Assembly (NCBI GenBank): GCA_016286445.1
Contig: JAEESS010000007.1
Span: 3,318 to 67,317 of the forward strand
DNA: 64,000 nucleotides
Origin: Bacillota bacterium
GTDB taxonomy: Bacteria; Bacillota; Clostridia; Christensenellales; CAG-138
Direction of reading: 5' to 3'
Position numbers and translations under genes: made by a program. Below are positions 23,112 through 63,625 of the stretch, piece by piece. Each line of letters starts with the position of its first letter. Position 1 is the first letter of the stretch. Under the pieces are notes generated by a model, which made no database searches, had not been told where the DNA came from, and worked only from the letters and a program-made list of their open reading frames with translations.

Positions 23112-23138
23112 TGGCGGAAGCGCCGACAAAAAGATAAT

Positions 23139-24032: not shown

Positions 24033-24057
24033 TATACAGCAATGATCAGATATTGAA

Positions 24058-27185: not shown

Positions 27186-27212
27186 TTGAAAGGTTCAAGG
27201 GAGAATAAGACT

Positions 27213-28433: not shown

Positions 28434-28467
28434 CGGCAGAACACTACGTAAGAATCTGGGTGAGAAA

Positions 28468-29244: not shown

Positions 29245-29291
29245 ACAAAGGTTGGTATGAACAAACGTTCGGATTATTACAGGAAACACAA

Positions 29292-33736: not shown

Positions 33737-33748
33737 GAGGTTTATAGG

Positions 33749-34825: not shown

Positions 34826-34847
34826 TTGATCAAAGGTCGCTATTGAA

Positions 34848-36383
34848 ATGAGAAAAAAGAAAGCACTTATAAATACGATTTTTTCGATGCTGTTGGAAGT
34901 GATCACGGTTGTTGCCGGGTTTATCCTTCCCAGATTGTTCATCGGAACGTTTGGATCGGAAGTCAACGGGTTGGTGTCTTCGATAACAAGTTTTATCGGT
35001 TACATCACGCTTCTTCAATCCGGCGTCGGAACGGTCGCCAAGGCTGCCATGTACAAGCCTCTGGCAAAGAAGGATCATGACAAGCTTTGCGTTATCGCAA
35101 AAACCGTAGAATCCTTTTTCCGGAAGATCGCATTTATTACCATCGCATATATAGCCGTTCTCGCAGGCCTGTTTCCGACGCTGATCGCGCCGGACACGGG
35201 ATCGTTTTTGTATACGGCTTCATTGGTGGTGATCATAGGCGTTAGCACCGCAGCGCAGTATTTCTTTGGCATTACGCACCAAATGCTGCTGGAGGCGGAT
35301 CAAAACTCCTATGTCTATTCAATCCTGCAGATTGCGACAGTCATCGTCAACACGGCGGTGTCCGTAGTTTTGATCAAAGCCGGTTGCTCGGTTCAGATCG
35401 TGAAACTGGGCAGTGCTGCTATCTTTGTATTGCGTCCGCTGCTGCTCAGCATCTACACCAAGAGGAAATATAAGCTTTACGGCAAATATGAGGTTGATAA
35501 TTCGCTGATCAAGCAACGCTGGGACGGCTTTGCGCAGGCGATAGCATATTTCATTCATTCAAAGACCGATATTTTTGTGCTGACGCTGTTTGCCAGATTC
35601 AGCCCAAATGTTTCATTGAGCCTGGTTTCCGTTTACAGCGTTTATCACTTGGTCACGACCGGTTTGACGTCATTTATCCGTGCGATTGAACGAGCAGTTA
35701 CGTCGGCACTCGGCAATATCATTGCATTGGGCGAGCGAGATACCCTTGTCAAGACATTTCAGGCATATAACAATTTCATGCATATTCTGTGTACGACGGT
35801 GTTTGCGACCGCAAGCATAACGGTGTTCAAGTTTGTCGGTATCTATGTCAAAAACATTACCGATGTGGAATATGTGCAATATGCATTCGGTTATATCATT
35901 ATTGCAGCCGAATATCTGTTTTGTTTGCGGTTACCGTACACCAGCCTCATCAATGCGGCAGGAAAGTTCAAAGAGACAAGAACCTCGGCAATCGTAGAAG
36001 CAGTCTCGAACATTGCTGTTTCTGTGATACTGGTATCGAGATTCGGGTTGATCGGCGTAGCGATCGGCACGTTTGTTGCTATGGCATATCGAACGGTTTC
36101 CTTTATGATCTTTTTGCATAAAGACGTTATCTGCTTGAGTATCGGCACACAGATCAAGAGGTATTTGCTTTCTTTTGTGATCTACGGGGCTTTGGTTTAT
36201 GCAGCTTCACTGATCAATATTCAAATCACACACTATGTGTCATGGATTCTTTATGCGGGAATTACGTTTGCGGCGACCGGCGCGGTTACATTACTGGTCA
36301 ATCTCCTTATCATGCGAAAAGAAACTGTTGCCGTAATCAAAACGTTCATCAGACGTCTGCCCAAAAAACGGGCGGATTCTTGA
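34848..36383 (+). CDS. wzx: MOP-superfamily oligosaccharide flippase (Wzx)
   Basis: 511 aa with about 12-14 TM segments. N-terminus MRKKKALINTIFSMLLEVITVVAGFILPRLFIGTFGSEVNGL is typical of polysaccharide-biosynthesis flippases. Confidence 0.75.
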   Translation: MRKKKALINTIFSMLLEVITVVAGFILPRLFIGTFGSEVNGLVSSITSFIGYITLLQSGVGTVAKAAMYKPLAKKDHDKLCVIAKTVESFFRKIAFITIAYIAVLAGLFPTLIAPDTGSFLYTASLVVIIGVSTAAQYFFGITHQMLLEADQNSYVYSILQIATVIVNTAVSVVLIKAGCSVQIVKLGSAAIFVLRPLLLSIYTKRKYKLYGKYEVDNSLIKQRWDGFAQAIAYFIHSKTDIFVLTLFARFSPNVSLSLVSVYSVYHLVTTGLTSFIRAIERAVTSALGNIIALGERDTLVKTFQAYNNFMHILCTTVFATASITVFKFVGIYVKNITDVEYVQYAFGYIIIAAEYLFCLRLPYTSLINAAGKFKETRTSAIVEAVSNIAVSVILVSRFGLIGVAIGTFVAMAYRTVSFMIFLHKDVICLSIGTQIKRYLLSFVIYGALVYAASLINIQITHYVSWILYAGITFAATGAVTLLVNLLIMRKETVAVIKTFIRRLPKKRADS

Positions 36384-36419
36384 CACCCATATGGACAGGA
36401 CAGAAAGAGGAAATAATAT

Positions 36420-37535
36420 ATGAAAAAGATCATGACTGTATTCGGCACACGGCCGGAGGCAATCAAAATTTGCCCGCTCGTCAATGAAATGAAAAAACGG
36501 GCGGGGCTGCAGGTCGTTGTCTGCGTGACGGCGCAGCACCGGCAGATGCTGGATCAGGTGCTGGAAACGTTCGGCGTCGTGCCGGATTACGACCTGAACA
36601 TCATGAAGGACCGGCAGACGCTGTTCGACATTACGACCAACATTCTGAACGGGATCAAGGCGGTGCTGGAGAAGGAAAAGCCGGACGTCGTGCTTGTTCA
36701 CGGCGATACCAGCACGACGTTCGTCACGGCGCTCGCGTGTTTCTATCTGCAGATCCCGGTCGGACATGTGGAAGCGGGGCTTCGGACGTACAATATTTAC
36801 AGCCCGTATCCGGAGGAATTCAACCGCGAAGCCGTTTCGATCATCTCGCAGTATAACTTTGCGCCGACGCCGCTGTCCCGTGACAATCTGCTGCGCGAGG
36901 GAAGAAAGGCGGAGAATATCTATGTCACCGGCAACACGGTCATCGACGCGATGCAGCATACGGTGAAAGCGGATTACTCACATCCCGAATTGGATTGGGT
37001 CGGCGACGGCAAGCTGATCTTTATTACGGCGCACCGCCGCGAAAACCTCGGCGAGCCGATGCATCATATGTTCCGTGCTATTCGCCGCGTCCTCGACGAG
37101 CATCCGGAGTGCAAGGCGGTCTATCCAATCCATATGAATCCGGTCGTACGGCAGGCGGCGGACGAGGAGCTCGGCGACTGCAAGCAGATCCATATCATTG
37201 AGCCGATCGAGGTCTTTGACTGTCACAACTTTGAAGCGCGGTCCTATCTGTGCCTGACCGATTCCGGCGGGATCCAGGAGGAGTGTCCGTCCTACGGCGT
37301 ACCGGTACTGGTCATGCGCGATACGACGGAACGTCCCGAAGGCGTCGATGCCGGGACGCTGAAGCTGGTCGGTACGAATGAGGAGACGATCTACAATACC
37401 TTTAAGCTGCTGCTTGAAAACAAAGAGGAATACGAGAAGATGTCGCACGCATGCAATCCGTACGGAGACGGACACGCCTGCGAACGCATTGCAGACATTC
37501 TGGAAGGCAAAGCCTATACTCCTTGGGAACCGTGA
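36420..37535 (+). CDS. wecB: UDP-N-acetylglucosamine 2-epimerase (non-hydrolysing)
   Basis: MKKIMTVFGTRPEAIKICPLV...VLVHGDTSTTF...HVEAGLRTYN...LTDSGGIQEE. GC-richer than its neighbours. Confidence 0.9.
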   Translation: MKKIMTVFGTRPEAIKICPLVNEMKKRAGLQVVVCVTAQHRQMLDQVLETFGVVPDYDLNIMKDRQTLFDITTNILNGIKAVLEKEKPDVVLVHGDTSTTFVTALACFYLQIPVGHVEAGLRTYNIYSPYPEEFNREAVSIISQYNFAPTPLSRDNLLREGRKAENIYVTGNTVIDAMQHTVKADYSHPELDWVGDGKLIFITAHRRENLGEPMHHMFRAIRRVLDEHPECKAVYPIHMNPVVRQAADEELGDCKQIHIIEPIEVFDCHNFEARSYLCLTDSGGIQEECPSYGVPVLVMRDTTERPEGVDAGTLKLVGTNEETIYNTFKLLLENKEEYEKMSHACNPYGDGHACERIADILEGKAYTPWEP

Positions 37536-50189: not shown

Positions 50190-52412
50190 TTATTTCACCT
50201 TGGCGGAAAGCACGTTCGACCAGTCGCCGAAGTACGTCATACCCTCGAACACCTGATACGAGCGTACCGTCACATAATAGGTCGTGCCGGATTTCAGGTT
50301 TTTGATCACGTTCTGATACTGATCCGGACGCGTGATCTTGATCGCGGTGACGTTCTTGGTAAAGCTCCGGTCCGTTGCGTACTTGATCTGATAGCCGGTA
50401 AAGACCTTGGAGCCGGACCATTTGACGGTCAGCTGCTTCGATCCGGGCGTAACGGCGTTCAGCTTGCGCGTTGTGATGCGTACGGTCGTTTTCAACGGTC
50501 CGACAAGCCCGAGGTTGAAGTTGTCCATCGGATCCTCGAAATACGCCTTGACGCCGTACTGATAGCGCGTTCCGGCATAAACGGTCGTGTCGATCCACGA
50601 CGCGGCAGTCGTGTTGTTCCAGCGTTCAAACGTCGTCCAGCCCGCGCTTGCAAGGTTCCATGCGCGGCGATAGATGACATAGCCCCTTGCACCGGAGACC
50701 GGTTCCCAACTCAGTCGAATGCCATTGTCAACGTTCTGCACGGCGGTCGTGTTCGTTGCGGGCAGATAGATCTTGAACCAAAGCGTCAGCATTCGATCCG
50801 TCCCCTTGAACGCGACAGTCGCCTTTGCTGTGCCGGGGGTCGTATTGTTTGTATAGCGCACGGTATAGTATGCGGGATCGATCTCACTGCCGGACGGATC
50901 CGTTACGACGACGGAGGGCTTCTGGGCAAAACCGTTCGCGACGACGTACGCCGTCGTGCCCTTATACTGCACGGCGCCGTCCCGGAACGAGGCAAAGGCA
51001 TCGCCGGTATATGCGGGAACGAGGGAGACGTCCACCTGCATCGAACCCTTGCCGGTGTCGTACAGATAGGTGAAGGAATCGACCGCTTCCTGTGCTGTCA
51101 CGACGCCGGTCGCGGGATCGTAGGAGAGCGCCGCGTCGGAAACCGAGACGCGGGACGGATCCGAAACAAGCGCATGCATGTCGAACGTGTACGCACCGCC
51201 GTCCGCCGCAAACCCGCCGACGGCGGTCACCGTCTGCGTGCCGGGTTGGCAGTTCTTCAGCGTCCCGTATCTGCCGAGATCCAGTTCAGACAAACAGTTT
51301 CCGCCGCACCAAAGCAGATACAGCTTTGATGCGGGGTCAAGGATCAGTTCGGACAGGCGATTGTTCGGGCAGTAGATGTTCTCGATCTTCGGACAGGCGG
51401 AAAGATCGAGAACCGACAGCCTTCCGACGATCTCCAGAATGTTCAGGTTCGGGCAGGCGGAAAGATCGAGCGCATCCAGATCGGTGGAAACAAGCATCAG
51501 ATCGGTCAGCGCGGGCTTGCTGCCGAGCTTCAGCGTGTGCAGCTTCACGTCGTCGTACATGTTGTCGTTCTCATAAAGGATCCGGATCAGCTTCTCGCAG
51601 TTGGAAAGATCGAGTGCCCCGACCGGGCAGCTGTCCAGATGCAGCGATTGAAGCTTTGTGCATTTGGTCAGATCGAGCGCGGTGATCGGCACGTCCATCA
51701 GACCAACACTGCGCAGGTATGTGCAATTCGTAACGTCCAGCGCTGCAACGGGACAAGACATGAGAAAGAGCGATTTCAAAAGCCTGCAGTTTGTAAGATC
51801 GAGCTCCGTGATCGGCGCATCGGTCAGATCCAATGTATGCAGATCGGTGTTTTCGGAAACGTTCAGCGCTTCGATCGGAACGCTATACAGGAGCAGATCG
51901 GTAAGCTTTTTGTTGTGCGAAAGATCCAGCGTGCGCAGCGAGGCGTTTTCGATGCTGAGGTAAGTCAGCTCCGCAAGCTGAGAAAGATCGATCGACGCCG
52001 TGTCACAATTCTGAAGCGTCAGCTTGAGAAGCTTTGTGTTTGCCGAAAGATTCAGACGGGTCACGATCGTATCGGTGTGAAGGGCCAGCACCGTCAGCTC
52101 CGTAAAGTGTTCAAGCCCGGTAAAATCGGATACGCTTGCGTCGATCTCCATCTCCCTGACGGAAAGGACCCGGTCCCTTGTCAGATACCAGACACGGTCG
52201 TCAAAGTCGGCTTCATCGTCGGGATCGCATTGTCCGTAGTGTTCCCGAATGAACAGACGGAACTGCTCATCCGGGAACGTCCGTTCGTTGATCTCAAGAT
52301 AGTGCGCATCGCGCGGCGTTTCGATTTCGGCGCCTTCCTCCGCGATCGCGGCAGGCGCAAGCGCAAAGAGCATCAGCAATGCCAGCATCAGTGCAAGACA
52401 TCGTTTCATCAT
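50190..52412 (-). CDS. Secreted protein with leucine-rich repeats followed by Ig/FN3-like domains
   Basis: Signal peptide MMKRCLALMLALLMLFALAPAAIA. About 22-aa LRR units (LDLSHNKKLTDLLL..., LDLTNCRLLKSLFL..., LDLTKCTKLQSLHL...). C-terminal FN3-like segments (GIRLSWEPVSGARGYVIYRR, LTVKWSGSKVFTGYQIKY). Paralogous to the ectodomain of 52539..54779. Confidence 0.75.
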   Translation of the reverse strand: MMKRCLALMLALLMLFALAPAAIAEEGAEIETPRDAHYLEINERTFPDEQFRLFIREHYGQCDPDDEADFDDRVWYLTRDRVLSVREMEIDASVSDFTGLEHFTELTVLALHTDTIVTRLNLSANTKLLKLTLQNCDTASIDLSQLAELTYLSIENASLRTLDLSHNKKLTDLLLYSVPIEALNVSENTDLHTLDLTDAPITELDLTNCRLLKSLFLMSCPVAALDVTNCTYLRSVGLMDVPITALDLTKCTKLQSLHLDSCPVGALDLSNCEKLIRILYENDNMYDDVKLHTLKLGSKPALTDLMLVSTDLDALDLSACPNLNILEIVGRLSVLDLSACPKIENIYCPNNRLSELILDPASKLYLLWCGGNCLSELDLGRYGTLKNCQPGTQTVTAVGGFAADGGAYTFDMHALVSDPSRVSVSDAALSYDPATGVVTAQEAVDSFTYLYDTGKGSMQVDVSLVPAYTGDAFASFRDGAVQYKGTTAYVVANGFAQKPSVVVTDPSGSEIDPAYYTVRYTNNTTPGTAKATVAFKGTDRMLTLWFKIYLPATNTTAVQNVDNGIRLSWEPVSGARGYVIYRRAWNLASAGWTTFERWNNTTAASWIDTTVYAGTRYQYGVKAYFEDPMDNFNLGLVGPLKTTVRITTRKLNAVTPGSKQLTVKWSGSKVFTGYQIKYATDRSFTKNVTAIKITRPDQYQNVIKNLKSGTTYYVTVRSYQVFEGMTYFGDWSNVLSAKVK

Positions 52413-52538: not shown

Positions 52539-54779
52539 TCATTCGATCGTACAGCTTCGGATGTTCGACCACGGACTGTGGACCGTATTTCCGAAGCGGT
52601 TGTAGATCACGCGGACACGGACGTAATACCGCGTGCCTGCAGTCAGTCGATCGATCGTACCTTCCTGTACGGCGAGATAGAAGAACTCACCGGAATGCAC
52701 GTCCTCGGCAAAGCCCGGGTCGCTTGAGACCTGCATCTCGTATGCGTCTGCGCCGTCAATGCCGGACCATACCGCCGTGACCTCGTCTGCCTCTCCGGAG
52801 ACCGAAAGCAGCGTCGGCGGCTGAATGTACAGGACGTCGTTTGAATACGAGCTTTCGCCGGCGGCGTCGGGATTGCCGCCGAGACATGCCTTTACGATAT
52901 ACCGGTATTGCATGAACGACGAGACGCCGCCGTCCGACCAGCCTGCCTCCGCTGTTCTTCCGAGCAGCGCGGGATCGCTCCATTCGCCGCGCGTGACGGG
53001 CTTTTCGATGCGGTACACCAGATAGCTCTCTGCGCCGCTGATCGCCGTCCATGAGACACGCACGCCGCCGGACGACGCGGACGCGCTCAGACCGGAGACC
53101 TGCGGTGCGATGATCCGGAACGTGGCGACCGCGAAGATGTCCGAATTGTGCATGGTGACGTTCACAAACGCCGTGCCGAGGTTTACGTTGTTCGAGTAGG
53201 TGACGTCGTACAGCTTCGGATTGAGGATCACGCCGTTCTGGTCGAGTACGCGGATCGGCGGCTGCTTCGCATTGCCGTTGTAGATCATGTACGGCGTGCT
53301 GCCGTCAAAGCGCACAAAGGTGTCGCCGGGCTTGAATGCGGTTTCAAACTCGATCCGGATGCTTCTGACGGGCGGAGGTGTTTTGCTTGGCGTCTGCGGG
53401 GCGGCGGTTGCGGAAACGTTCGGTTCCGGAAGCGTAACCTCTACCTCAAAGACCGAGCTGCCGGTATGGTAACGGTAAACGAATGTTTTGAACGCGGTAT
53501 CGGTGCGAAGGATGCCGGTTGCAGGGTCGTAGCGCATGCCTTCGCCCGCGAACGACACGCGTGAGGGATCGTCGACCAGCAGATGCAGATCGAAGTACCA
53601 ACCCTGCGTGTCCTGCTTAAACGGCGCGGATGCGCGAACCGACTGCTTTCCGCCGTCGATCGCCGCTTCCGACGCGCCGACGGTGAGCTCACGCAGATGA
53701 TTTCCGGAAACGGAAACGGACCGAAGCGCTGTGTTGGCGGACAGATCGAGCGACTGCAGGTTGTTTCCGTCGACGGAAAGCTGTTCGAGGTTCGGACAGC
53801 CCGTGACGTCCAGCGTTTCGAGCGCGTTGTCGGAAAGCGTCAGCGTATGAAGCGCCGGAAGCGTTCCGAGCTCCAATTCGCAGAGCGCACCGCCGGAAAC
53901 GGTCAGCGAACCGAGTTTTTCGTTTGCGCTGACGTCCAGCGTTTCCAAACCGCCCTCAACAACAACGGCAACCAGGTCCGTATTTGCGGAAAGATCAAGT
54001 GCCTGTACAGACGGAAGCGCAAGGTCGAGCGAGATGAGCGCGGTCAGCCCGGAAAGCGACGCGGCTTCGACCGATCCGTCGGCATGCCACGACAGCGAGG
54101 TGAGTGCAGGGAACTGCTCGAGCCCGCGAAGATCGCGCACGCTGTCCGGCAGTTCGAGCGAGCAAACGCTGCGCGTCTGCGCTTCGGTCAGATAGTATCC
54201 GTATTCGTCCTGTTCGGCGCCTGCCGTGTCGATCAGGTATGCGCGCAGGGCTTCGTCCGGAATGCTCTCGGCGTCGAGAGACAGATACCGGTCGGACGGA
54301 ACCGGATCCGTCGGCGCGGGGGACGTTGCCGGGACGACGGTCGCCGCGGGCTCGGGCGTTTTTTCATCAACGGGCGCTTCGATCGAAGGAGATTCCGGAG
54401 CAGCGCCGGGACGGAAGAGATCGCCCAAAAGCCCTCTGCCGAACGGCGTGAGTGCAAAGAACCCGACGATCAGCAGCACGGCGGCAGCGGGGATCAGACG
54501 CGGCGCATACGCACGGAAGCTTTCGCCGACGCTTGAAAGTTGCAGCTTCAGCCTGCGGGTCCTTTTACGGCGCGGCGGCTCCCGCATCAGCCGTTCGATG
54601 GTTTCGGTAAGCTCCGGCGGCCAGTCCGCGCGCGCGGAAGCGCGGTTCAGGATCGCTTCGACCGACGGACAGACGTGCCGTTCGGCAAGCGCCGCCGCCT
54701 CGTCCTCTCCGATGGAAAAGGCGTCGTTCAAAAGATACGGTTTTTTGCGGAGCAGTTTTTTCAGTTTGCGATTGGTCAT
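52539..54779 (-). CDS. Single-pass membrane protein, candidate anti-sigma factor with LRR + FN3 ectodomain
   Basis: Start overlaps the sigma-factor stop (ATGA). About 110-aa cytoplasmic N-terminus, TM LIPAAAVLLIVGFFALTPF, Pro-rich spacer, LRRs (LDLSANTDLVAVVV, LDVSANEKLGSLTV, LDVTGCPNLEQLSV, LDLSANTALRSVSV) and FN3-like repeats (VRVSWTAISGAESYLVYR, VTAVWSGIDGADAYEMQV). Confidence 0.7.
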   Translation of the reverse strand: MTNRKLKKLLRKKPYLLNDAFSIGEDEAAALAERHVCPSVEAILNRASARADWPPELTETIERLMREPPRRKRTRRLKLQLSSVGESFRAYAPRLIPAAAVLLIVGFFALTPFGRGLLGDLFRPGAAPESPSIEAPVDEKTPEPAATVVPATSPAPTDPVPSDRYLSLDAESIPDEALRAYLIDTAGAEQDEYGYYLTEAQTRSVCSLELPDSVRDLRGLEQFPALTSLSWHADGSVEAASLSGLTALISLDLALPSVQALDLSANTDLVAVVVEGGLETLDVSANEKLGSLTVSGGALCELELGTLPALHTLTLSDNALETLDVTGCPNLEQLSVDGNNLQSLDLSANTALRSVSVSGNHLRELTVGASEAAIDGGKQSVRASAPFKQDTQGWYFDLHLLVDDPSRVSFAGEGMRYDPATGILRTDTAFKTFVYRYHTGSSVFEVEVTLPEPNVSATAAPQTPSKTPPPVRSIRIEFETAFKPGDTFVRFDGSTPYMIYNGNAKQPPIRVLDQNGVILNPKLYDVTYSNNVNLGTAFVNVTMHNSDIFAVATFRIIAPQVSGLSASASSGGVRVSWTAISGAESYLVYRIEKPVTRGEWSDPALLGRTAEAGWSDGGVSSFMQYRYIVKACLGGNPDAAGESSYSNDVLYIQPPTLLSVSGEADEVTAVWSGIDGADAYEMQVSSDPGFAEDVHSGEFFYLAVQEGTIDRLTAGTRYYVRVRVIYNRFGNTVHSPWSNIRSCTIE

Positions 54780-55309
54780 GATAGAGTCCTCCCGATCAAG
54801 AATACCAGCAGTAAGGTTTGATACAGCTTTGACTTGTTCTTCTTGATGTGAGCCCGCATTCGCTTGAATCGCTGTGCAACCGTGTTCACGCTGACGCCGA
54901 GCGCCGCGGCGATCTCCCTCTGCGAGTAGCCGTCCAGATAGAAGGCTTCAAACGCCTCGATCCATTCGGGCGGCGCGTCGGAGAGCATCTCGCGCAAAAG
55001 CGCGCGCGCCCGCTTGTCCTCGTATGCGGCGTCGCGCGGTTCGCCGTTCGCGGCAAGCTGCGGCGCAAGCTCCTTGAACCGGCGATCCCTACGCACCTCG
55101 CTGCAGTACGCGTGCCGCATGCAGGTCTTGAGATACGCGATCGGCTCGTGAACGGTCTCCGGGATCTTCCCGGAATAGATCAACAGCGCAAGATCGGCGA
55201 CAAGATCGCTTGCGGCTTCGTGGTCACCTGTGAGCATCAGCGCATAGCGATACAGCTTATTGCGGTTCGCATCATTCAGATAGACCGTTAACAACTCTTC
55301 AATTTGCAT
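54776..55309 (-). CDS. ECF-type sigma-70 family RNA polymerase sigma factor
   Basis: Region 2-like ...LYRYALMLTGDHEAASDLVADLAL... and region 4 HTH YLDGYSQREIAAALGVSVNTVAQRFKRMR; 177 aa. Confidence 0.85.
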   Translation of the reverse strand: MQIEELLTVYLNDANRNKLYRYALMLTGDHEAASDLVADLALLIYSGKIPETVHEPIAYLKTCMRHAYCSEVRRDRRFKELAPQLAANGEPRDAAYEDKRARALLREMLSDAPPEWIEAFEAFYLDGYSQREIAAALGVSVNTVAQRFKRMRAHIKKNKSKLYQTLLLVFLIGRTLS

Positions 55310-55443: not shown

Positions 55444-55468
55444 AAAAAAAACGACGCCGGGCGGCGCC
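55444..55468 (-). terminator. Intrinsic terminator (minus strand)
   Basis: Minus strand reads GGCGCC-GCCC-GGCGTC followed by TTTTTTTT. Confidence 0.6.
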
Positions 55469-55482
55469 GAAGGAGAATCCTG

Positions 55483-56310
55483 TTACTGTATGAGCCGATA
55501 GACGTCCGTTCTGCGCTGTCTGAGAAGCGGCAGCTCGGCACGGATCTGTTCGAGCCGGTCAAGGTCGAGCGTCGTGACCGCGACGGCTTCCTGCTCGTCA
55601 AGCTGCGCGAGGACGTTGCCCCACGGCGAACAGACGATCGAATGTCCCCAGGACCGATAGGAAGCGTTCGGGTCGCGCGCGGGCGCGGTGCCGACCGTGT
55701 AGACCTGGTTATCGACCGCGCGGCTTCTGAACAGCAGCTCCCAGTGTGCGGGACCGGTCGTCATGTTGAAGGCGGCGGGAACCAGGATGACCTTTGCGCC
55801 GGCGTCGACCATCAGCCGGGAGAGCTCCGGAAAACGAAAATCGTAGCAGATGCAGAGCCCGAAGCTGCAGAACGGGGTGGAAAAGGTCGTCACAGCGTTT
55901 CCGGGCGAAAGCGTGTCGGACTCGAAAAAACGCTGTCCGCCCTTTACGTCGATGTCGAACAAATGCATTTTGCGGTGCTTTGCGATCTGTCTGCCGTCGG
56001 GATCAAAGACGTATGCCGTGTTGTATACGCAATCGTTTTCACGCTCTGCGATCGAGCCGCCGCAAAGGTATGCGTGCCGTTCCTTCGCAAGCGCGGAAAG
56101 AAACTGCCACGACGGTCCGCCCTCGGGCTCGGCAAAGGTCGGGAACAGCCGCGCTTCATACGGTCCGTTCCACATTTCGGGCAGCATAAAAAGGTCCGCC
56201 GCGCCGTCCGGGACCGATCCGATAAGCGCCCGGATATGCGCGTATGTTTCTTCCTTTGTCGGTTTTCCGAGAAGCTGTATGCTTGCGATGCGCAGTAAAT
56301 GCCGGTTCAA
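55483..56310 (-). CDS. Carbon-nitrogen hydrolase (nitrilase-superfamily amidase, omega-amidase-like)
   Basis: LRIASIQLLG...MLPEMWNGPY (Glu)...HRKMHLFD (Lys)...FGLCICYDFRFPEL (Cys) forms the E-K-C triad. Start taken at TTG 56310 behind GGAAGGAGGA; the track start 56394 is unsupported. Confidence 0.8.
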   Translation of the reverse strand: MNRHLLRIASIQLLGKPTKEETYAHIRALIGSVPDGAADLFMLPEMWNGPYEARLFPTFAEPEGGPSWQFLSALAKERHAYLCGGSIAERENDCVYNTAYVFDPDGRQIAKHRKMHLFDIDVKGGQRFFESDTLSPGNAVTTFSTPFCSFGLCICYDFRFPELSRLMVDAGAKVILVPAAFNMTTGPAHWELLFRSRAVDNQVYTVGTAPARDPNASYRSWGHSIVCSPWGNVLAQLDEQEAVAVTTLDLDRLEQIRAELPLLRQRRTDVYRLIQ

Positions 56311-56423
56311 GGCAGATCCTCCTTCCATGCGGCGACGGGGAGACGCGCGCTCCTGTTCGACAGACGGGATTTTCCGTGGGGAAATCCGAATCAATTCTTC
56401 GGGTTGCCGTGCTTACGGCTTGT

Positions 56424-57287
56424 TCAGAGGACGGCAAGGTCCTGCAGAAAACGCAGCATTCCCTTTGGAAGCGGCGCGTCGGGGGAGAGCCCGGTGTCCG
56501 CAAGCGGGATCAGCTTATTGCTTCCGTGGTAATCGCTGCCGGCGGTGACGTAAAGATCAAACGCCTCCGACAGCGCAAGGATCTGCTCCCGCAGAATGTC
56601 GGTATAGCCGGAGTAGCAGCCCTCCAGTCCCGAAAGCCCGAAGCCGATCAAGCGGCGAACGCGATCTTCGAGCTCGGCGCCGAGAATCAGCTGATCGCCG
56701 TCGCCGAAGCACGGATGCGCCAGCACCGGCACGCCGCCGGCGTCGAGGATCGCGCGGATCGCATCCTCGGGACGCGTATAGAGATCCGGCACATGCAGAC
56801 GGTTCAGCACCGTATGAAACGCAGATTTGATCGTTTCGGCGCGTCCGTATCGGACCATCAGCTTTGCCAGATGCGGTTTTCCGGGGTTTGAAAGCGCGTG
56901 CAGCGCTTCGACGTCCGCGTTCGGAAAGGTGATCCCGTATTCCGTTTTGAGCTGTTCCAGCCGCAGATCGAGCTTTTTCAGACGGTTTGCATGTCCCGCA
57001 TCCACAACGGCGCGGATCGAAGGCGCGTCCGGACTGTAGCCGTAGCCTAAGATGTGATACTTTCCGCACGCGTCCTTGCAGGAAAACTCCACGCCGAACA
57101 GAAAGCGCGGATCGTCCTGCCGGAGCTGCGCTTTGATCCGATCGCATGCGGCGATCGCATCGTGATCCGTGACGGAAAACACATCGATGCCCGCTGCGCG
57201 CACATGGGAAAGGAGCTCCTCCGGCGTGTCTGTGCCGTCGGAAACGTTCGTGTGCATATGCAGGTCGATGATCGGATGCGTTTTCAT
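56424..57287 (-). CDS. PHP-domain phosphoesterase (TrpH/YciV-like)
   Basis: IDLHMHTNVSDGTDTPEELL...FSVTDHDAI...VLAHP...GSDYHG. Confidence 0.85.
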   Translation of the reverse strand: MKTHPIIDLHMHTNVSDGTDTPEELLSHVRAAGIDVFSVTDHDAIAACDRIKAQLRQDDPRFLFGVEFSCKDACGKYHILGYGYSPDAPSIRAVVDAGHANRLKKLDLRLEQLKTEYGITFPNADVEALHALSNPGKPHLAKLMVRYGRAETIKSAFHTVLNRLHVPDLYTRPEDAIRAILDAGGVPVLAHPCFGDGDQLILGAELEDRVRRLIGFGLSGLEGCYSGYTDILREQILALSEAFDLYVTAGSDYHGSNKLIPLADTGLSPDAPLPKGMLRFLQDLAVL

Positions 57288-57299
57288 GATGCCCGTCCT

Positions 57300-58844
57300 T
57301 TACGCCCGTTTGACCAGCGTCAGGATGTTCTGTCCGTTGCGGTATTCATAGTGAACGTCGTCCATCAGCTTCTTGGTCAAGAACACCCCGAGCCCGCCGA
57401 TGGCGCGTTCGTCCGCGGAAAGGGTCACGTCCGGATCCTGCTTTTTCAGCGGATCATACGGTACGCCGCGGTCGATGAACGTGATCGTAACGCCGTCGGG
57501 ATCGACCGCGATCCGCACGGTTGCTTTGCCCTTTTCGGGCGCGTAGGCATAGCTTGCGATGTTGATGAAGATCTCCTCCGCGGCAAGCCCGATCTGCATC
57601 CGGGATCTCGGCGGGAACTGGATTTTCGCAAGCTGTTCTTCCAGAAAGCTCTGCACCTCGGCAAGATTCTCCGCGGAGGCTTCGATGGTCAGCTCTTCCC
57701 GGGAGAAGGTCAGCGTGTCGACGGTTTCAAGCAGCTCGATCAGCTCGCGGGTCCAGAGCGCGTTTTCCGTTCGTCCCTGCTCGGTTTTGATCTCCCCGCG
57801 GCGGATCCCGCGGCGGATGAGCCGTGTATACCCGATAATGCGGGCTTTGTTTTCAACCTCGCGGATCTTTGTTTCGGAGGTTGTGCCGAGATAGGAGGCA
57901 AGCGTTTCATGCCAGAATCGCTTTGCCGTTTCAAAATCATAGCCCTGGAACCGCTTGATGATTTCGTGATCCACCTCGGAGAAGCCGACGAACGCGTTGT
58001 ACATGCTGCCGAGCTCAAAGATCGGATATCCCATGGCAAGCGTATCCATGTCGATCAGAAGGACCTCGTCGTTCTGAAGCTCTAAATTCTTGGTGTGATA
58101 GTCGCCGTGGATCAGGTGGTTGTCGCGCGGGACCGCCTCGATCAGCGCAAGAAGCTTCTTTTCGGATTCCTCCGGCAGGGTATCCTGCAGGAATCGCGCC
58201 CACGAAAGCGCGGTCTGCTTCATGTCCGTGAGCTTTCCTTCCGGCGCTTCGGTGCCGTGGATTTTCAGAAGCATTTCCGAAAACTCCTTTACGCACCAGT
58301 CGAACTTCTCCGGCTGCGTCGAAAGGATCTTTGCAAACGAGCGCGCGTTCAGAAGCTCAAAGACCGAGCCGTAGCTATTGCCGACCTTTACGACGTCATA
58401 GGAGATCGCGGTGGGGATGCCGAGGATCAGCGCAAGCTTTGCCATCTCGCGCTCATTCTGAATGTCTCCGAGCGCGTCGGCATTCCGGTAGACCTTTACC
58501 ACATTGTCGCTGTCGATGCGGTACAGCGAACCGTTTGAACCGTGGCCGATCTCCTCGCAGCCCTCGATGGAAACGACGCGGTACGCTTTTTCCACCGTCA
58601 GGATCTCCGTGAAGCCGGTCATGTCCAGGATTTCATAGACCTCGGAACTGACGTTAATGATCCGCATATCGGGATGCGTTTTGCGGATCCGCAGCAGGAC
58701 GCGAAGCCCTGCGGAGGAAATGTATTCGAGATGCTCCGCATCCAGCACGACCGGTTCGCCGTCAGCGGTAAGCTTCTCAAGCATCCGCGCTTCCGCCGCG
58801 GCGGCGTTCTGGGAATCGATTCGTCCGTTCAACGTAATTATCAT
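57300..58844 (-). CDS. Tri-domain protein: STAS, APH/protein-kinase-like phosphotransferase, GHKL (RsbW/SpoIIAB-like) ATPase
   Basis: STAS: MIITLNGRIDSQNAAAAE...LEYISSAGLRVLLRI...VYEILDMTGFTEIL. PKL: IGHGSNGSLYRI...VVKVY...LIHGDYHTKNL...LLIDMDTL. GHKL: ...LAAEEIFINIASYAY...DRGVPYDP...GGLGVFLTKKLMD.... Start at 58844 behind AAGGAG. Confidence 0.8.
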   Translation of the reverse strand: MIITLNGRIDSQNAAAAEARMLEKLTADGEPVVLDAEHLEYISSAGLRVLLRIRKTHPDMRIINVSSEVYEILDMTGFTEILTVEKAYRVVSIEGCEEIGHGSNGSLYRIDSDNVVKVYRNADALGDIQNEREMAKLALILGIPTAISYDVVKVGNSYGSVFELLNARSFAKILSTQPEKFDWCVKEFSEMLLKIHGTEAPEGKLTDMKQTALSWARFLQDTLPEESEKKLLALIEAVPRDNHLIHGDYHTKNLELQNDEVLLIDMDTLAMGYPIFELGSMYNAFVGFSEVDHEIIKRFQGYDFETAKRFWHETLASYLGTTSETKIREVENKARIIGYTRLIRRGIRRGEIKTEQGRTENALWTRELIELLETVDTLTFSREELTIEASAENLAEVQSFLEEQLAKIQFPPRSRMQIGLAAEEIFINIASYAYAPEKGKATVRIAVDPDGVTITFIDRGVPYDPLKKQDPDVTLSADERAIGGLGVFLTKKLMDDVHYEYRNGQNILTLVKRA

Positions 58845-59041
58845 TTCGGTGGTCTCCTTCTCCTGAATCATATAAGATACTGTATTATAACATATCTTTT
58901 CGCTAAAAGCATGAACTATTTCAAGAAATATCAAAATAACTTCTTGAAAAGCGCCGCTCCAGCGTGTACAATACAATCAATCGGGATAACGTACGGTGCG
59001 TGATCGCCTGTCAACGCTTGGCGGGCGGGAAAGGATTATAC

Positions 59042-59656
59042 ATGAAAACGGATATCATTCAAATCGAACCGAGCGGCGCGGGCATTGAGAAAGCGCTTGC
59101 GGAGACCGAAAAGGCCGCCGCTTTTCGGGGACTGGATCCCAAGCAGACGTTAAGACTCCGGCTGCTTGCCGAGGAGATGACGGGCATGCTGAAAACGATC
59201 ACCGGGCAAACGCAGTATCGCTACTGGGCGGAATCGGAAGGGAACGTTTTTTCGCTGCATCTGATGACGAATATGCAGGTGGATCCGGAAATGCGCGAAA
59301 CGCTTCTGAAAACGTCGACCACCGGTAAAAATGCCGCCGCGAAGGGCTTTATGGGACGGCTGAAGGATATTTTTCTGCGGCTCGGCGAATCGACCGACGC
59401 CAATGCGTTTGCCACGGAATACGGTTACGGCTACGTCGGCGTGGTCGGCTATGACGCTTCGGTGGATATGTCGCCGAACGCCGTGCTGTACGGCTGGTCG
59501 ATGTCCGCCTATCGGGATGCCGTTGCAAAGCATCAGTCCGAGGAACCGGAGAAGTGGGATGAACTGGAAAAATCGATCACGGCAAAGCTGGCGGATGAGG
59601 TCAAGATCTTCATTCGCGGCAAATCCGTGGAAATGGTAATCGAAAAAGCATTCTGA
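59042..59656 (+). CDS. Hypothetical protein (no family recognised)
   Basis: 205-aa ORF MKTDIIQIEPSGAGIEKALAETEKAAAF...LRLRLLAEEMTGML..., 21 nt upstream of the STAS gene. Coding-like composition. Confidence 0.5.
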   Translation: MKTDIIQIEPSGAGIEKALAETEKAAAFRGLDPKQTLRLRLLAEEMTGMLKTITGQTQYRYWAESEGNVFSLHLMTNMQVDPEMRETLLKTSTTGKNAAAKGFMGRLKDIFLRLGESTDANAFATEYGYGYVGVVGYDASVDMSPNAVLYGWSMSAYRDAVAKHQSEEPEKWDELEKSITAKLADEVKIFIRGKSVEMVIEKAF

Positions 59657-59677
59657 TTTCGGAAGGGAGATACAAAC

Positions 59678-59974
59678 ATGACGATTGAAAAAACAAAAAA
59701 CGGCAGCGCTCTTTTGATCGCGCTTTCCGGCAGACTGGACACCATGACCGCACCGGACCTCGAAGCGGAGCTCAAGGACGGACTTGAAGGGATCGAGGAG
59801 CTGACCTTTGATCTTGATAAGCTCGACTACATCTCTTCCGCAGGGCTTCGAGTGCTGCTTTCGGCGCAAAAGACCATGAACCGTCAGGGCAGCATGAAGG
59901 TGCAGCATCCGAATGAGGTGATCGCGGAGATCTTCGAGGTTACCGGCTTTACGGATATCCTCACGATCGAATAA
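59678..59974 (+). CDS. STAS-domain protein (anti-sigma-factor antagonist, SpoIIAA/RsbV-like)
   Basis: LSGRLDTMTAPDLEAEL...LDYISSAGLRVLLSAQK...VIAEIFEVTGFTDILTI; 98 aa. Confidence 0.85.
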   Translation: MTIEKTKNGSALLIALSGRLDTMTAPDLEAELKDGLEGIEELTFDLDKLDYISSAGLRVLLSAQKTMNRQGSMKVQHPNEVIAEIFEVTGFTDILTIE

Positions 59975-60226: not shown

Positions 60227-63200
60227 ATGAAATACATGAGGAACGGAGCAATGAAAAGAGCGGCGTCGCTGCTGCTTGCGCTGATCATGGTATTCGGCAT
60301 AATCGGCAGCGTGGCAGCGGCAGACTCGAATGTATACTATTTGATCGGTACAATGACAGATTGGTCGGTCAACGCGGATTACCAGCTTACGGAGAATCCC
60401 AATGTGCCGGGTGAATATCAGATCACGGTGGACCTTCCGGCAAACGCGGAGTTCAAGGTTGTCAAAGGAAACACAGAAACATGGTATCCGGATAATGCCG
60501 GCAATTATGCGGTTTCCGAAGCGGGCAACTATACCGTATCTTTCCGTCCGGACGGACAAGGCGGCAGCGACTGGTATTACGGCTATTTCTACGTTGCAAA
60601 GAACGTGATCCCGACCTACGCAATCACCGTCACCACCGACGGACATGGCACAGCGGTCGCGGACAAGACCGCGGCGCAGGCGGGCGAAACCGTCACCGTC
60701 ACCATCGCACCGGACGAGGGCTACGAGCTCGATACCGTTACCGGCACGCCCGGAACATGGAATCTGTCCGGTAACATCGGCACCTTCACAATGCCCGCGG
60801 AAGCGGTTGCGTTGCGTGTGACGTTCAAGGAGCAGCACGTTCCTGAAGAGCACCGGATCCATACAATCGTCACTGGCGAAGGCACAGTAACCGTTGCGGA
60901 ACGGGCAACGGAGGGCGATACCGTCACCGTCACGCTGATGCCTGCGGAGAACTATGCGCTCCGCACGCTGAAGGTCGACGGACGCGATGTTACCTCGGCG
61001 GGAGTGCTTTCCGCTCTTTCCTATTCCTTTGTGATGCCGGGCTACGACATTACGATTGAGGCGGTCTTCGACGCGGTCGCGACAGGTGAGCATGCGATCC
61101 ATGTGTTCGTGTCCGGTCTCGGCACGGCGTTTGCGGACAAGACCACGGCGGCGGAGGGCGAACGCGTTACTTTCACCATTGAAAACGGCGTCGGCTATGT
61201 GTTCCAGCAGATCGTGGTCAATGACATTCCACAGCTCAAGAATCAAACATGGTTTGAGATGCCGAATGCGGATGCGATCGTTTACATTTATTTCGATCGC
61301 GTGGATTATCCAATCACGCTGAACAGCGGCGTACAGGGCACGATGAATGCGATCCCGCGTACCAATTCTGCATTTGCCGGCACCGAGGTGCAGGTCATCG
61401 TCAACGCGAACGAGGATTACGACGTCAAGACGCTGACCGTCATAGAGACCGAAACGAATGAACCGGTGGATGTGAAGCTGAAGGAGAAGGACGGACAGAC
61501 TTCGATCTATACATTCACGATGCCTGCCGCGTCGGTTACCGTCACGGCGACCTATAAAAAGCGCGCGACCAACGGCTACTACCTCCTGAAGGGGCAGGGG
61601 GGCAATTGGACGGTCGATCAGATCGACGGCAACGACAAGTTTGTCGACGACCTTTCGGTCTCCGGACAGATGCTGCTGACGACGGAGCTCTTCGCCGGCG
61701 ATGAGATCAAGGTCGTGCACGTCACAAAAGGCGCGATCGACGTATGGTATCCGGACGGTTTGGATAATCAGTATCACGTTACGCAGAACGACACGGGCGC
61801 CGTAACGATTTATTTCAGAACGTCATATTATAATGAATGGTCAGCTTTCGGCGGATACTTCTTCGTCAAACGATTCGAGAACCAGTACTATTTGGTAAAC
61901 GCAGATAATGAAGCCATCCGTTGGGACGACCATCTGTATATCAATAAAGAGTTTAACGCGAATGCGATCATCAATGACAAGAACGAGACCATCAAAGGAC
62001 TTTACGGATCCGATCATGAGCATATGGTCCTGACCTGGCGCAATTCCGGCGAAAAGCTCAAGGTTGTGAAAGTTGCCAACGGGACAATTGCGGAATGGCT
62101 GCCCGACGGTGTCAGCAATGCATATCCGGAATGGATTACGCCGAACTCCACGCAGGACAAGATGCACTATGGCGCGCAGAACAGCGCGGGCAGATACGGC
62201 GTATTCGAAGGCATGGTCTTTGTCTTCTTTGAGGAGCAGATCGGTCATGTATACGGCACCGACAACGTGCTGCGCAGTGATCGCATCGACTGGACGAACA
62301 ACGTCTTCGACGTGCAGAAGGCGTTCAAGGCGGACGCCGCTGACAAATCGACGGTCAATCCGCTGAACGCCGAATCGCTGACCTACAACCTTGCGCACGG
62401 CAGCATCAGCCTCTCCACCGGCACGCCGTTCATCCGGGAAGGACGCAGCGATGAGGGCAGTATCCCTGAGGCGATGAGCAACATCATCTATGAGCTCGGA
62501 CTGAATCAGGAGGTCTACGTCTCCATCCTTGCAGAGGCGGGCTATGCGCTCGACGGCACGCCGTACATCACTTACGGCAATGCCCGCGCCGATATGACGA
62601 AGGACGGCGATCGCTGGTACTTCACCATGCCGAGAGCCGACGTCGTGATCCACGCGCCGATGAAAAAGGTGTTCCGCACGCAGTCCGTGCTGCTGTCCGG
62701 ACAGATCGGCGTCAATTTCTTCGTCGATCTTTCGGCGTATACCGACGAGGAGAAGCATAACTGCCGGATGAAGTTTACGGTCGGAAAGGACAGCGAGCCG
62801 CAGTGGGCGGATTTCGGTTCGGATTTCCACAGCACGATCACGCCGACGAACTACGGCTTCACCTGCTTTGTGAATGCGATCCAGATGGCGGACGAGATCA
62901 CGGCGAAGCTCTATTACGGCAACGAGGAGATCTCGTATAAGCACTATTCGCTCGAAGAGTATGTCAAGTATTTCGATCGTTCGGACAGCACGCAGAACAA
63001 CAACGTTGAAGCGCTGCGCGTCATCCGCGCCATGATCGACTTCGGCTATTATGCGCAGCAGTATTTCAAAGAGCTAAACGCTTCGCTCTTCGATGAATAT
63101 ACGGAGGTCAAGCGCTACTACGCGACGCAGTACGATTTCGCCTCAATCAAGCGCATGACCGAAGGACATTCGCTGAAAAATGCGGAAAACGTCGATCTCG

Positions 63201-63625
63201 GCACATCGGACATTGATTCTCTTTCCGCGTCGATCGCCGTGGATTCCGCCACTGCGCTGATCGTGTATCTGACTATGAAATCCGGCACGACATCGACGCC
63301 GGAGATCAAGGTCGGCACGCAGACGCTTTCGATGTCAAATCCGGAGGTCAAAAACGGCAGCTTTACCTGGAAGCTTACGGATGAGTTCTCGGGCTCGACA
63401 CGGAAATACGCAGTCCGGATCGAGGGCATCAGCCCGCACAATCTGGATAAGCGGTTCACGATCAAGGGAACGGCGGGCAGCAATTTCACGATCAAGGCGT
63501 CGACGTTCTCCTATATTGATTTGGTTCTGTCTTCGGAATCTGTGTCGAACGAGATGAAGATGCTGGTCGCGTCGATGTACGCGTTCCATGAAGCGGAAGT
63601 TGCGTACCGCAACCAATCGAACTGA
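60227..63625 (+). CDS. Large secreted repeat-containing protein (three YYL-W beta-sandwich-like modules plus four ~75-aa tandem repeats)
   Basis: Signal peptide MKRAASLLLALIMVFGIIGSVAAA. Repeats YAITVTTDGHGTAVADKTAAQAGETVTVTIAPDEGYEL / HTIVTGEGTVTVAERATEGDTVTVTLMPAENYAL / HVFVSGLGTAFADKTTAAEGERVTFTIENGVGYVF / YPITLNSGVQGTMNAIPRTNSAFAGTEVQVIVNANEDYDV. No sortase or choline-binding motif seen. Exact start ambiguous (60227, 60236 or 60251). Confidence 0.7.
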   Translation: MKYMRNGAMKRAASLLLALIMVFGIIGSVAAADSNVYYLIGTMTDWSVNADYQLTENPNVPGEYQITVDLPANAEFKVVKGNTETWYPDNAGNYAVSEAGNYTVSFRPDGQGGSDWYYGYFYVAKNVIPTYAITVTTDGHGTAVADKTAAQAGETVTVTIAPDEGYELDTVTGTPGTWNLSGNIGTFTMPAEAVALRVTFKEQHVPEEHRIHTIVTGEGTVTVAERATEGDTVTVTLMPAENYALRTLKVDGRDVTSAGVLSALSYSFVMPGYDITIEAVFDAVATGEHAIHVFVSGLGTAFADKTTAAEGERVTFTIENGVGYVFQQIVVNDIPQLKNQTWFEMPNADAIVYIYFDRVDYPITLNSGVQGTMNAIPRTNSAFAGTEVQVIVNANEDYDVKTLTVIETETNEPVDVKLKEKDGQTSIYTFTMPAASVTVTATYKKRATNGYYLLKGQGGNWTVDQIDGNDKFVDDLSVSGQMLLTTELFAGDEIKVVHVTKGAIDVWYPDGLDNQYHVTQNDTGAVTIYFRTSYYNEWSAFGGYFFVKRFENQYYLVNADNEAIRWDDHLYINKEFNANAIINDKNETIKGLYGSDHEHMVLTWRNSGEKLKVVKVANGTIAEWLPDGVSNAYPEWITPNSTQDKMHYGAQNSAGRYGVFEGMVFVFFEEQIGHVYGTDNVLRSDRIDWTNNVFDVQKAFKADAADKSTVNPLNAESLTYNLAHGSISLSTGTPFIREGRSDEGSIPEAMSNIIYELGLNQEVYVSILAEAGYALDGTPYITYGNARADMTKDGDRWYFTMPRADVVIHAPMKKVFRTQSVLLSGQIGVNFFVDLSAYTDEEKHNCRMKFTVGKDSEPQWADFGSDFHSTITPTNYGFTCFVNAIQMADEITAKLYYGNEEISYKHYSLEEYVKYFDRSDSTQNNNVEALRVIRAMIDFGYYAQQYFKELNASLFDEYTEVKRYYATQYDFASIKRMTEGHSLKNAENVDLGTSDIDSLSASIAVDSATALIVYLTMKSGTTSTPEIKVGTQTLSMSNPEVKNGSFTWKLTDEFSGSTRKYAVRIEGISPHNLDKRFTIKGTAGSNFTIKASTFSYIDLVLSSESVSNEMKMLVASMYAFHEAEVAYRNQSN

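Follow-up and report, generated by a model that had tools for sequence, protein, structure and literature searches.

What does a partner switch control when neither a PP2C phosphatase nor a cognate sigma factor is found with it? The question is raised by five genes at positions 55483-59974 of a stretch of 64,000 nucleotides (nt) from a Bacillota bacterium (contig JAEESS010000007.1; this whole 64-kb stretch is referred to below as the window). A preliminary description of the locus had proposed a partner-switching-like module, built around one protein that joins a STAS domain, an APH-type kinase domain and a GHKL domain, with a PHP phosphoesterase instead of a PP2C. The analysis described here supports the module itself, through the pairing of STAS with an RsbW-type GHKL domain and the co-conservation of a small STAS protein. 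It does not support the exchange of phosphatases. On balance, the locus probably encodes a partner-switching (STAS/GHKL serine-kinase) module whose type is widespread among Bacillota of the rumen and gut, and whose output is unlikely to be a sigma factor.

The Tri-Domain Protein

The central gene of the locus (57300-58844, minus strand) encodes a protein in which three domains follow each other. Profile search of the open reading frame (ORF) 57300-58976 (minus) placed all three above the Pfam gathering thresholds, as had been anticipated: STAS (PF01740, 53.2 bits, E 2.7e-14), APH (PF01636, 57.9 bits, E 1.7e-15) and HATPase_c_2 (PF13581, 86.9 bits, E 1.4e-24). On the minus strand, the STAS domain covers approximately residues 1-88 (nt 58581-58844), the APH-type kinase domain residues 96-375 (nt 57720-58559) and the RsbW-type HATPase_c_2 domain residues 384-514 (nt 57303-57695). 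Translation is likely to start at the ATG at 58844, because a GGAG-rich ribosome-binding site is present and most homologues are of 514-517 amino acids (aa); the product then has 514 aa. The length of 515 aa that had been given is one codon off, whereas the three-domain architecture stands. One gene caller used the upstream ATG at 58871 as an alternative start, which results in 523 aa.

Among the NCBIfam models, the anti-sigma antagonist model TIGR00377 was found above its cutoff, and RsbW and TIGR02172 below theirs. TIGR02172 is the name under which the protein is listed by the Joint Genome Institute (JGI). The match covers model positions 6-201 of 226 with 100.7 bits (E 1e-28), short of the curated cutoff of 228.2, so the tri-domain protein is a relative and not a member of this family.

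The motifs quoted in the preliminary description were found, with a conservation of at least 98% across 201 homologues. In the STAS domain this applies to the ISSAGL loop, in the APH-type domain to the G-loop, the Lys of VVKVY, HGDYHxxN and IDMDT, and in the GHKL domain to the N-box (EE..N), the G1 box (DxGxPxDP) and the G2 box (GGLG). In matches to PDB sequences, Ser44 of the STAS domain aligns with Ser58, the phospho-serine of SpoIIAA, and Ser44 is the predicted phospho-acceptor of this domain. The GHKL domain matches RsbW (6m36) with E values of 2e-5 to 2e-6 in the same type of search; with its N, G1 and G2 boxes it provides the RsbW/SpoIIAB-type GHKL domain by which a partner-switching locus is recognized.

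The middle domain has a kinase-like fold, the β3 Lys, an HxDxxxxN catalytic loop and a DxD metal-binding motif, and these are represented by the invariant K117, HGDYHTKN (246-253) and IDMDT (264-268). An AlphaFold2 (AF2) model of the whole protein was obtained with a mean predicted local distance difference test score (pLDDT) of 86.2 and a predicted template modeling score (pTM) of 0.77. When this model was searched with Foldseek, the middle domain matched APH(2''), APH(3'), APH(4) and a protein of the choline/ethanolamine-kinase family (3dxq) with probability 1.0, and capreomycin phosphotransferase was also matched. The target-length template modeling (TM) scores of these small-molecule kinases were 0.41-0.60, which is consistent with the APH region assigned by Pfam. 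Pfam and the conserved motifs thus bear out that one chain combines a STAS domain with two kinase folds. A near-invariant Arg-rich helix at residues 333-349 (window approximately 57798-57848; K333, R335, R341, R344, R345, R348 and R349) was noticed in the helical lobe that lies C-terminally in the APH-type domain. It may serve to bind an anionic substrate or a phospho-STAS domain.

The idea that such an architecture is rare had to be abandoned. A search of a collection of 5.8 billion proteins found it in at least 8000 protein clusters, and all 120 of the top 120 matches, at 68-100% identity, carry the three Pfam domains. In a scan of one genome per species, relatives were found in 203 species genomes. 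The best 80 of these come almost entirely from Bacillota of the rumen or gut (Oscillospiraceae, Lachnospiraceae and Solobacterium/Erysipelotrichaceae), and they include the cultured Butyrivibrio proteoclasticus P6B7. Membership in a defense system was considered and rejected, as none of the five locus proteins matched the PADLOC anti-phage defense models at E<=1e-3.

The Free STAS Protein and Its Conservation

The second component by which partner switching is recognized, an anti-sigma-antagonist-type STAS protein with a conserved Ser in a DSSG-like loop, is encoded at 59678-59974 on the plus strand. This 98-aa protein is above cutoff for both PF01740 (54.7 bits) and TIGR00377 (68.7 bits, cutoff 53.45), and 66 orthologues share the motif L.YISSAGLRVLL with a conservation of at least 90%. 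Ser54, within LDYISSAGLRVLL, is its predicted phospho-acceptor and lies in the same loop as Ser44 of the tri-domain protein.

To place these genes in context, the loci of the best 80 of the 203 species genomes were compared by mapping the window proteins and proteins of the relatives with tblastn. Gene-order counts were taken from the tblastn tables; an ORF-based gene-order table was noisy from high-GC shadow ORFs and was set aside. Of the 80 loci, 46 have at least 5 kb on both sides, and the counts out of 46 given below refer to this well-flanked set. The small STAS gene was found in 41 of the 46, often directly upstream of the tri-domain gene. The divergent single-domain STAS protein with the same loop is confirmed, and it is a genuine, conserved partner of the tri-domain protein.

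The Phosphatase Question

A SpoIIE-type PP2C gene is present in 31/46 loci. Where enough upstream sequence was available (68 loci), the gene that directly precedes the tri-domain gene codes for a dCache-HAMP-SpoIIE protein in 32. One example (L046:2252-4435) contains dCache_1, SpoIIE (5.8e-53) and a HAMP match that is weak (E 0.016) and does not reach the Pfam cut-off. From these neighbor counts, the typical array is STAS, sensor-PP2C, tri-domain protein, PHP and, optionally, a DUF218 protein. In one relative (L025:42-1934), a SpoIIE (PP2C) domain is fused to HATPase_c_2 on a single chain next to STAS and tri-domain genes, and this HATPase_c_2 is a near relative of the one in the tri-domain protein.

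The window departs from this array. By tblastn and custom hidden Markov model (HMM) scans, no SpoIIE/PP2C gene, second STAS gene or second HATPase_c_2 gene was found in the whole 64 kb, so that the absence of a PP2C noted earlier holds. The closest relatives, L001 (84% identity), L002 (76%) and L004 (72%), share the arrangement of the window, in which the tri-domain and PHP genes run in one direction and an "orphan" gene and the STAS gene run in the other. Other orphan-containing loci (L003, L009, L029, L035, L041 and L070) do have a PP2C, which argues that neither the PHP nor the orphan replaces it.

The PHP gene (56424-57287, minus; 287 aa, PF02811) starts 12 nt after the stop codon of the tri-domain gene, a gap that was confirmed from the ORF listing. 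It is the most frequent downstream neighbor of the tri-domain gene, being immediately downstream in 39 of the 70 loci with enough downstream sequence (56%), and it is present in 33/46 loci; co-conservation of the PHP with the module is thereby borne out. PHP and PP2C occur together in 23/46 loci, where approximately 22 are expected under independence. Since the co-occurrence equals chance expectation, the PHP does not behave as a substitute for the PP2C.

The sequence class of the PHP agrees with this. Against PDB sequences, the matches were 3e0f (9e-30, residues 8-264, near full length), Cv1693 (2yb1), 9etk and the 5'-3' exoribonuclease 7ug9. Two NCBIfam models were matched at approximately 1e-30: NF041577, for the 3',5'-bisphosphonucleotide (pAp) phosphatase, with 107.9 bits (cutoff 400), and NF047791, for RNase RNM, with 106.7 bits (cutoff 375). 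The His/Asp metal-ligand motifs were found by inspection to be kept (DLHMHT for HxH, TDHD for DHD, LAHP and GSDYHG). No similarity to the CpsB/YwqE-type protein phosphatases was seen among the Pfam, NCBIfam and PDB matches at E<=1e-3. By its sequence, the PHP is a nucleotide-type phosphoesterase of the TrpH/YciV/Cv1693 class. The approximately 108 bits, against equivalog cutoffs of 375-400, indicate a separate subfamily, which is linked to the tri-domain kinase by its genomic context. It shares with TrpH/YciV (RNase AM) and the Cv1693 3',5'-bisphosphonucleotide phosphatases (PHP, COG0613 class) the near full-length alignment and the metal-ligand motifs; unlike them, it scores far below the equivalog cutoffs and is linked to a signaling kinase.

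The proposal of a PHP "instead of" a PP2C was rejected on these two grounds, the co-occurrence counts and the nucleotide-phosphoesterase class. A DUF218 multi-pass membrane protein follows the PHP in 19/46 loci (L046:6903-8111 and 18 others), and it is absent from the window. It may hint at an envelope-related role.

The "Orphan" and Other Predicted GHKL-Like Domains

The protein encoded at 59042-59656 (plus strand) had been described as an orphan of 205 aa. It has 204 aa and no Pfam or NCBIfam match, and it is not an orphan: relatives were found in 1022 clusters at E<=0.01 in the clustered collection and among 1166 representatives at 50% identity, and none of them carries a Pfam domain in the matching region. 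The relatives are mostly stand-alone proteins of approximately 200 aa, with some tandem duplications of approximately 400 aa (P0242, P0243, P0246, P0251, P0252, P0261, P0279 and P0296) and few fusions. The tandem proteins would mimic a SpoIIAB-like dimer on one chain. P0244 is a 739-aa protein in which a Mbeg1-like hydrolase is combined with several orphan-like stretches. The gene is present in 7/46 loci, and in all 11 loci having the free-standing form, it lies directly upstream of the STAS gene on the same strand.

The fold of this family was approached through an AF2 model, which reached a pLDDT of 71.6; residues 89-136 form an insert modeled with low confidence. The top Foldseek matches included SpoIIAB (1th8, 1tid, 1til and 1l0o), Mycobacterium tuberculosis UsfX (8ih8 and 8jzt) and RsbW (6m36 and 6m37), with probabilities of 0.99-1.0, target-normalized TM scores of 0.52-0.62 and E values of only approximately 1e-3. 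A helical insert of approximately 55 aa is set into the predicted GHKL-like fold. When the family was aligned by hhalign with the GHKL domains of the tri-domain protein and of the MatE fusions, the scores were weak (E approximately 1e-3, probability 13-21%) and the register was always the same, pairing the helix LRLRLLAEEMTG with the N-box helix, FSLHL with the G1 strand and GKNAAAKG with the G2 region. The Mg-binding Asn of the N-box and the DxGxG of G1 are missing family-wide. Instead, the helix LLAEEMTGML has Gly in the place of the Asn and the strand FSLHL occupies the place of DxG, both being invariant in the family, as are E44 and E45. If the fold assignment is right, the loss of the Asn and of DxGxG would make the protein kinase-dead. 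With moderate confidence, the orphan may be regarded as a kinase-dead SpoIIAB/RsbW-like (GHKL) partner of STAS.

GHKL-like domains were also found on membrane proteins in the relatives. MatE proteins, which are transporters of the efflux type, with a C-terminal, anti-sigma-kinase-like HATPase_c_2 domain (Pfam 2.7e-10; hhalign probability of 97.7% against the GHKL domain of the tri-domain protein) are encoded inside tri-domain loci (L011:8583-10355; also L003, L010, L017, L021, L027, L033, L034, L042 and L068) and occur in 8/46 of the well-flanked set. Symporters of the sodium:dicarboxylate family (SDF) with an N-terminal domain of approximately 125 aa are present in L053 (5301-6911), L014, L072, L073, L077 and L079, and in 3/46 of that set. 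With trimmed sequences, 103 columns of this N-terminal domain could be aligned to the tri-domain GHKL domain (hhalign probability 67%, E 5e-5), and the N-terminal domain lacks ATP-binding motifs, the Asn and G2 being lost. A third group consists of MscS channels with a C-terminal orphan-family domain (L022:10718-12151, inside a tri-domain locus, P0357 and P0360). Because GHKL-like domains reside on membrane transport proteins and no conserved sigma gene accompanies the module, non-transcriptional outputs are suggested. In B. proteoclasticus P6B7 (L068), the genes form a compact array of tri-domain, MatE-GHKL, PP2C, STAS and PHP.

Transcription Units and Neighboring Genes

The tri-domain gene and the pair formed by the orphan and STAS genes, which are separated from each other by 21 nt, diverge from an intergenic region of 197 nt (58845-59041). 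A consensus scan found sigma-70-like promoter matches on both strands, TTGAAA-17-TACAAT at 58944-58972 (plus) and TTGAAT-16-TATAAT at 59062-59035 (minus), both being consensus matches only. On the minus strand, the PHP gene is followed by a gene for a Nit-family carbon-nitrogen hydrolase (CN_hydrolase, PF00795, 1.4e-58; 281 aa). Taking 55483-56328 as the probable gene, the gap is approximately 95 nt and not approximately 110 nt as stated before; the placement in the same operon is retained, as the nitrilase probably shares the transcript of the tri-domain and PHP genes. Directly 3' of its stop codon, a strong, G+C-rich terminator-like hairpin is found (55452-55469, minus; a 7-bp stem with 6 G-C pairs, followed by the T-run TTTTTTTTAT). 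It likely marks the end of the tri-domain-PHP-nitrilase transcript and sets the operon apart from the ECF sigma gene beyond it.

Neither neighbor belongs to the conserved module. The nitrilase was rejected as a module member, as it is found in 0/46 loci and is missing even from the closest relative, L001. The ECF sigma gene (54776-55309, minus) lies 170 nt beyond the nitrilase and has its own promoter-like site; it was rejected because it is likewise found in 0/46 loci and a terminator stands between it and the operon. A gene for a 746-aa single-pass protein (52539-54779, minus) overlaps the ECF gene by 4 nt. This protein, with its N-terminus in the cytoplasm, a single hydrophobic segment and repeats of the LRR and fn3 types, is probably the anti-sigma or surface-sensor partner of the ECF sigma factor. 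A paralogous LRR/fn3 protein of 740 aa is encoded next to it (50190-52412). In the relatives, the ECF sigma and LRR/fn3 genes show no link to the STAS module.

Across the 80 loci, no conserved sigma gene was found within +/-7 kb. The statement that no sigma-B/F-type (group-3) sigma factor is nearby also holds for the window, as tblastn with a Bacillus subtilis SigF probe gave no match to a SigF/SigB-like sigma factor there or in the 80 loci, which is weak negative evidence.

Two further features of the window were recorded. Directly downstream of the STAS gene, a 1132-aa secreted repeat protein (Flg_new_2 in the precomputed annotation) is encoded at 60227-63625 (plus), and it is not conserved next to the module. 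At 22000-36500, an island of low G+C content (approximately 0.41-0.46, with flanks of 0.54-0.62) contains a surface-polysaccharide cluster with GT2 and GT1/GT4 glycosyltransferases, a Wzy_C polymerase/ligase, a polysaccharide pyruvyl transferase and an Asp2-like protein. This island was probably acquired horizontally or represents a variable glycan locus.

Proposed Mechanism and Alternative Explanations

A mechanism in five steps can be proposed for the partner-switching module. First, by homology, the GHKL domain of the tri-domain protein, which would be the only kinase-competent GHKL domain in the locus, may phosphorylate Ser54 of the free STAS protein and/or its own Ser44. The remaining steps are weaker than the first, as they are derived from gene context. 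In most relatives, the membrane-bound dCache-HAMP-SpoIIE PP2C would reverse this phosphorylation upon binding of an extracellular ligand; for the window, the PP2C gene presumably lies elsewhere in the genome. Unphosphorylated STAS would then alternate between two GHKL-type partners, one within the tri-domain protein and the other the predicted kinase-dead orphan, and in relatives the GHKL-like domains on MatE, sodium:dicarboxylate and MscS proteins may serve as additional partners. In a fourth step, binding or release at the GHKL domain would gate the APH-type kinase in cis, the substrate of which is most likely a small molecule. Finally, the TrpH-class PHP may act on the kinase product or on a related phosphorylated nucleotide, and not on phospho-STAS. 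The nitrilase and the ECF sigma factor would be bystanders.

Several points weigh against this proposal. The family is known from its sequences and their genomic surroundings, and the functional link between the PHP and the kinase is drawn from the adjacency of their genes. The APH-type domain could have a protein as its substrate, and STAS itself is one candidate. The PP2C is absent from the 64-kb window and is not adjacent in L001, L002 and L004. The connection of the orphan to the GHKL fold depends on a medium-confidence model (pLDDT 71.6), Foldseek E values of approximately 1e-3 and weak hhalign scores. To these must be added the alternative that survives best, a conventional sigma switch.

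According to this alternative, the GHKL domain and/or the orphan would be an anti-sigma factor for a sigma factor encoded elsewhere (SigB/SigF-like) or for the nearby ECF sigma factor, and STAS would be the anti-anti-sigma factor. The best structural matches of the orphan are indeed anti-sigma factors in complex with sigma or with an antagonist (1l0o, 8jzt and 1th8), the STAS protein passes TIGR00377, which is a model for anti-sigma antagonists, and an ECF sigma gene lies 170 nt past the nitrilase. However, the comparison of loci revealed no conserved sigma gene, no ECF gene and no match to the SigF probe. The ECF gene itself is cut off by a terminator, possesses a promoter-like site of its own and overlaps the gene of the 746-aa LRR/fn3 protein, an obvious anti-sigma candidate. 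In addition, the fusion of orphan- and GHKL-like domains to MscS, MatE and SDF proteins points to non-transcriptional targets. A sigma switch is therefore considered unlikely.

A somewhat less probable idea extends the fourth step of the preferred mechanism into an intramolecular switch with an enzymatic instead of a transcriptional output. Docking of STAS on the GHKL domain would gate the APH-type kinase, which would produce a small-molecule (possibly nucleotide) signal that is degraded by the PHP. In parallel, the free STAS protein would directly regulate transporters and channels via kinase-dead GHKL "receiver" domains, represented by the orphan family and the MscS-orphan, MatE-GHKL and GHKL-like-SDF proteins.

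More doubtful is the possibility that the APH-type domain is a protein kinase acting on the STAS (or GHKL) domains, by which two kinase inputs would converge on one STAS switch, the PHP being an unrelated housekeeping pAp phosphatase/nanoRNase in the operon. The domain has weak NCBIfam matches to the spore-coat protein kinases CotS/CotI and to Bud32, some APH-fold proteins such as YihE/RdoA are protein kinases, and a candidate substrate domain is present in cis. Nevertheless, the best fold matches are the small-molecule kinases listed above, namely APH(2''), APH(3'), APH(4), capreomycin phosphotransferase and the choline/ethanolamine kinase family. The adjacency of the PHP in 56% of loci across Oscillospiraceae, Lachnospiraceae, Solobacterium and Erysipelotrichaceae would also be hard to explain for an unrelated gene.

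Least probable is a PP2C-free switch in which the PHP has taken over the dephosphorylation of phospho-STAS: its probable co-transcription with the tri-domain gene, its rank as the most frequent downstream neighbor, the lack of an adjacent PP2C in the window, L001, L002 and L004 and the existence of PHP-fold protein phosphatases (the tyrosine phosphatases CpsB/YwqE) speak for it, but PHP and PP2C are distributed as independence predicts, with no sign of substitution, the matches are to nucleotide phosphoesterases and exoribonucleases (3e0f, 2yb1, 7ug9; NF041577 and NF047791) with no CpsB-type match at E<=1e-3, and we know of no TrpH-class enzyme acting on phospho-serine.

Comparison with Known Systems

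The preferred reading, a partner-switching module with a probably non-sigma output, shares several traits with the RsbV/RsbW/RsbU and SpoIIAA/SpoIIAB/SpoIIE systems of Bacillus. These are the single-domain STAS protein with a phospho-serine loop, the HATPase_c_2 domain with N, G1 and G2 boxes and, in most relatives of the locus, an adjoining SpoIIE/RsbU-type PP2C gene. Unlike in these systems, the kinase is part of a three-domain protein with its own STAS and APH-type kinase domains, the PP2C of the relatives has an extracellular dCache sensor, and a TrpH-class PHP is a conserved extra member. The mismatch to the canonical wiring that had been pointed out is real, as a PP2C gene is absent from the 64-kb window and no associated sigma gene was found in the 80 loci.

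A kinase and its STAS substrate on one chain have a precedent in Rv1364c of M. tuberculosis, which is composed of PAS, PP2C, RsbW-like kinase and STAS domains and in which Ser-600 of the STAS domain is phosphorylated by the kinase domain (PMC9138534). The tri-domain protein resembles Rv1364c in having a GHKL kinase and a STAS substrate domain in cis. It differs in that its STAS domain is N-terminal, PAS and PP2C domains are missing, an APH-type kinase is inserted and a separate free STAS protein is conserved, and it comes from Clostridia.

The proposed division of labor between a kinase-competent GHKL domain and a predicted kinase-dead GHKL-like protein encoded next to STAS recalls the SigF system of M. 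smegmatis, where RsbW1 is the anti-sigma factor, RsbW2 is a kinase only and RsbW3 is a kinase-dead modulator (PMC7693655). RsbW3 was proposed to act by protein-protein interaction, likely as a heterodimer with RsbW1, and not by catalysis (PMC7693655). The orphan is far more divergent than these paralogues, with no Pfam match and a 55-aa insert; it forms a large family of its own, is fused to MscS channels in some relatives and is not associated with an implicated sigma factor.

STAS/RsbW-like kinase/PP2C logic without a sigma factor is also known from Bordetella BtrU/V/W and Pseudomonas HsbR/HsbA. Together with Vibrio SypA/SypE, the outputs of these systems are type III secretion, biofilm and motility. 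SypA/SypE is likewise a non-sigma partner switch (PMC10120452). The locus resembles these three systems in that the same logic controls something besides a dedicated sigma factor. Unlike the locus, they are without an APH-type kinase domain, a PHP partner and GHKL-like domains on transporters.

Taken as a whole, the system is a variant of partner switching and not a categorically new mechanism. Searches of the literature on TIGR02172, on STAS, APH and HATPase combinations and on the comparative genomics of partner switching turned up no account of the architecture or of TIGR02172, and no characterized member of the tri-domain family was found in the literature searched. The points of lasting interest are the fusion of three domains, the close association with a PHP of the TrpH class, a new family of SpoIIAB-like proteins predicted to be kinase-dead, and GHKL-like domains fused to transporters.

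Significance

Partner switching is usually taught as a means to control alternative sigma factors. In this family, STAS/RsbW/PP2C logic meets three uncommon additions: a second, small-molecule-type kinase in cis, a nucleotide-type PHP, and GHKL-like domains on MatE, SDF and MscS proteins. The compact array of L068 occurs in a culturable organism, B. proteoclasticus P6B7, which makes the system experimentally approachable. If the intramolecular-switch idea were true, partner switching would gain a new kind of output logic, and perhaps a new messenger would be involved. If the inferences drawn for the preferred reading hold, a Pfam-less family of kinase-dead SpoIIAB-like proteins would be added to those known, and metabolism or transport in these bacteria would be under post-translational control by a partner switch that responds to extracellular Cache sensors.

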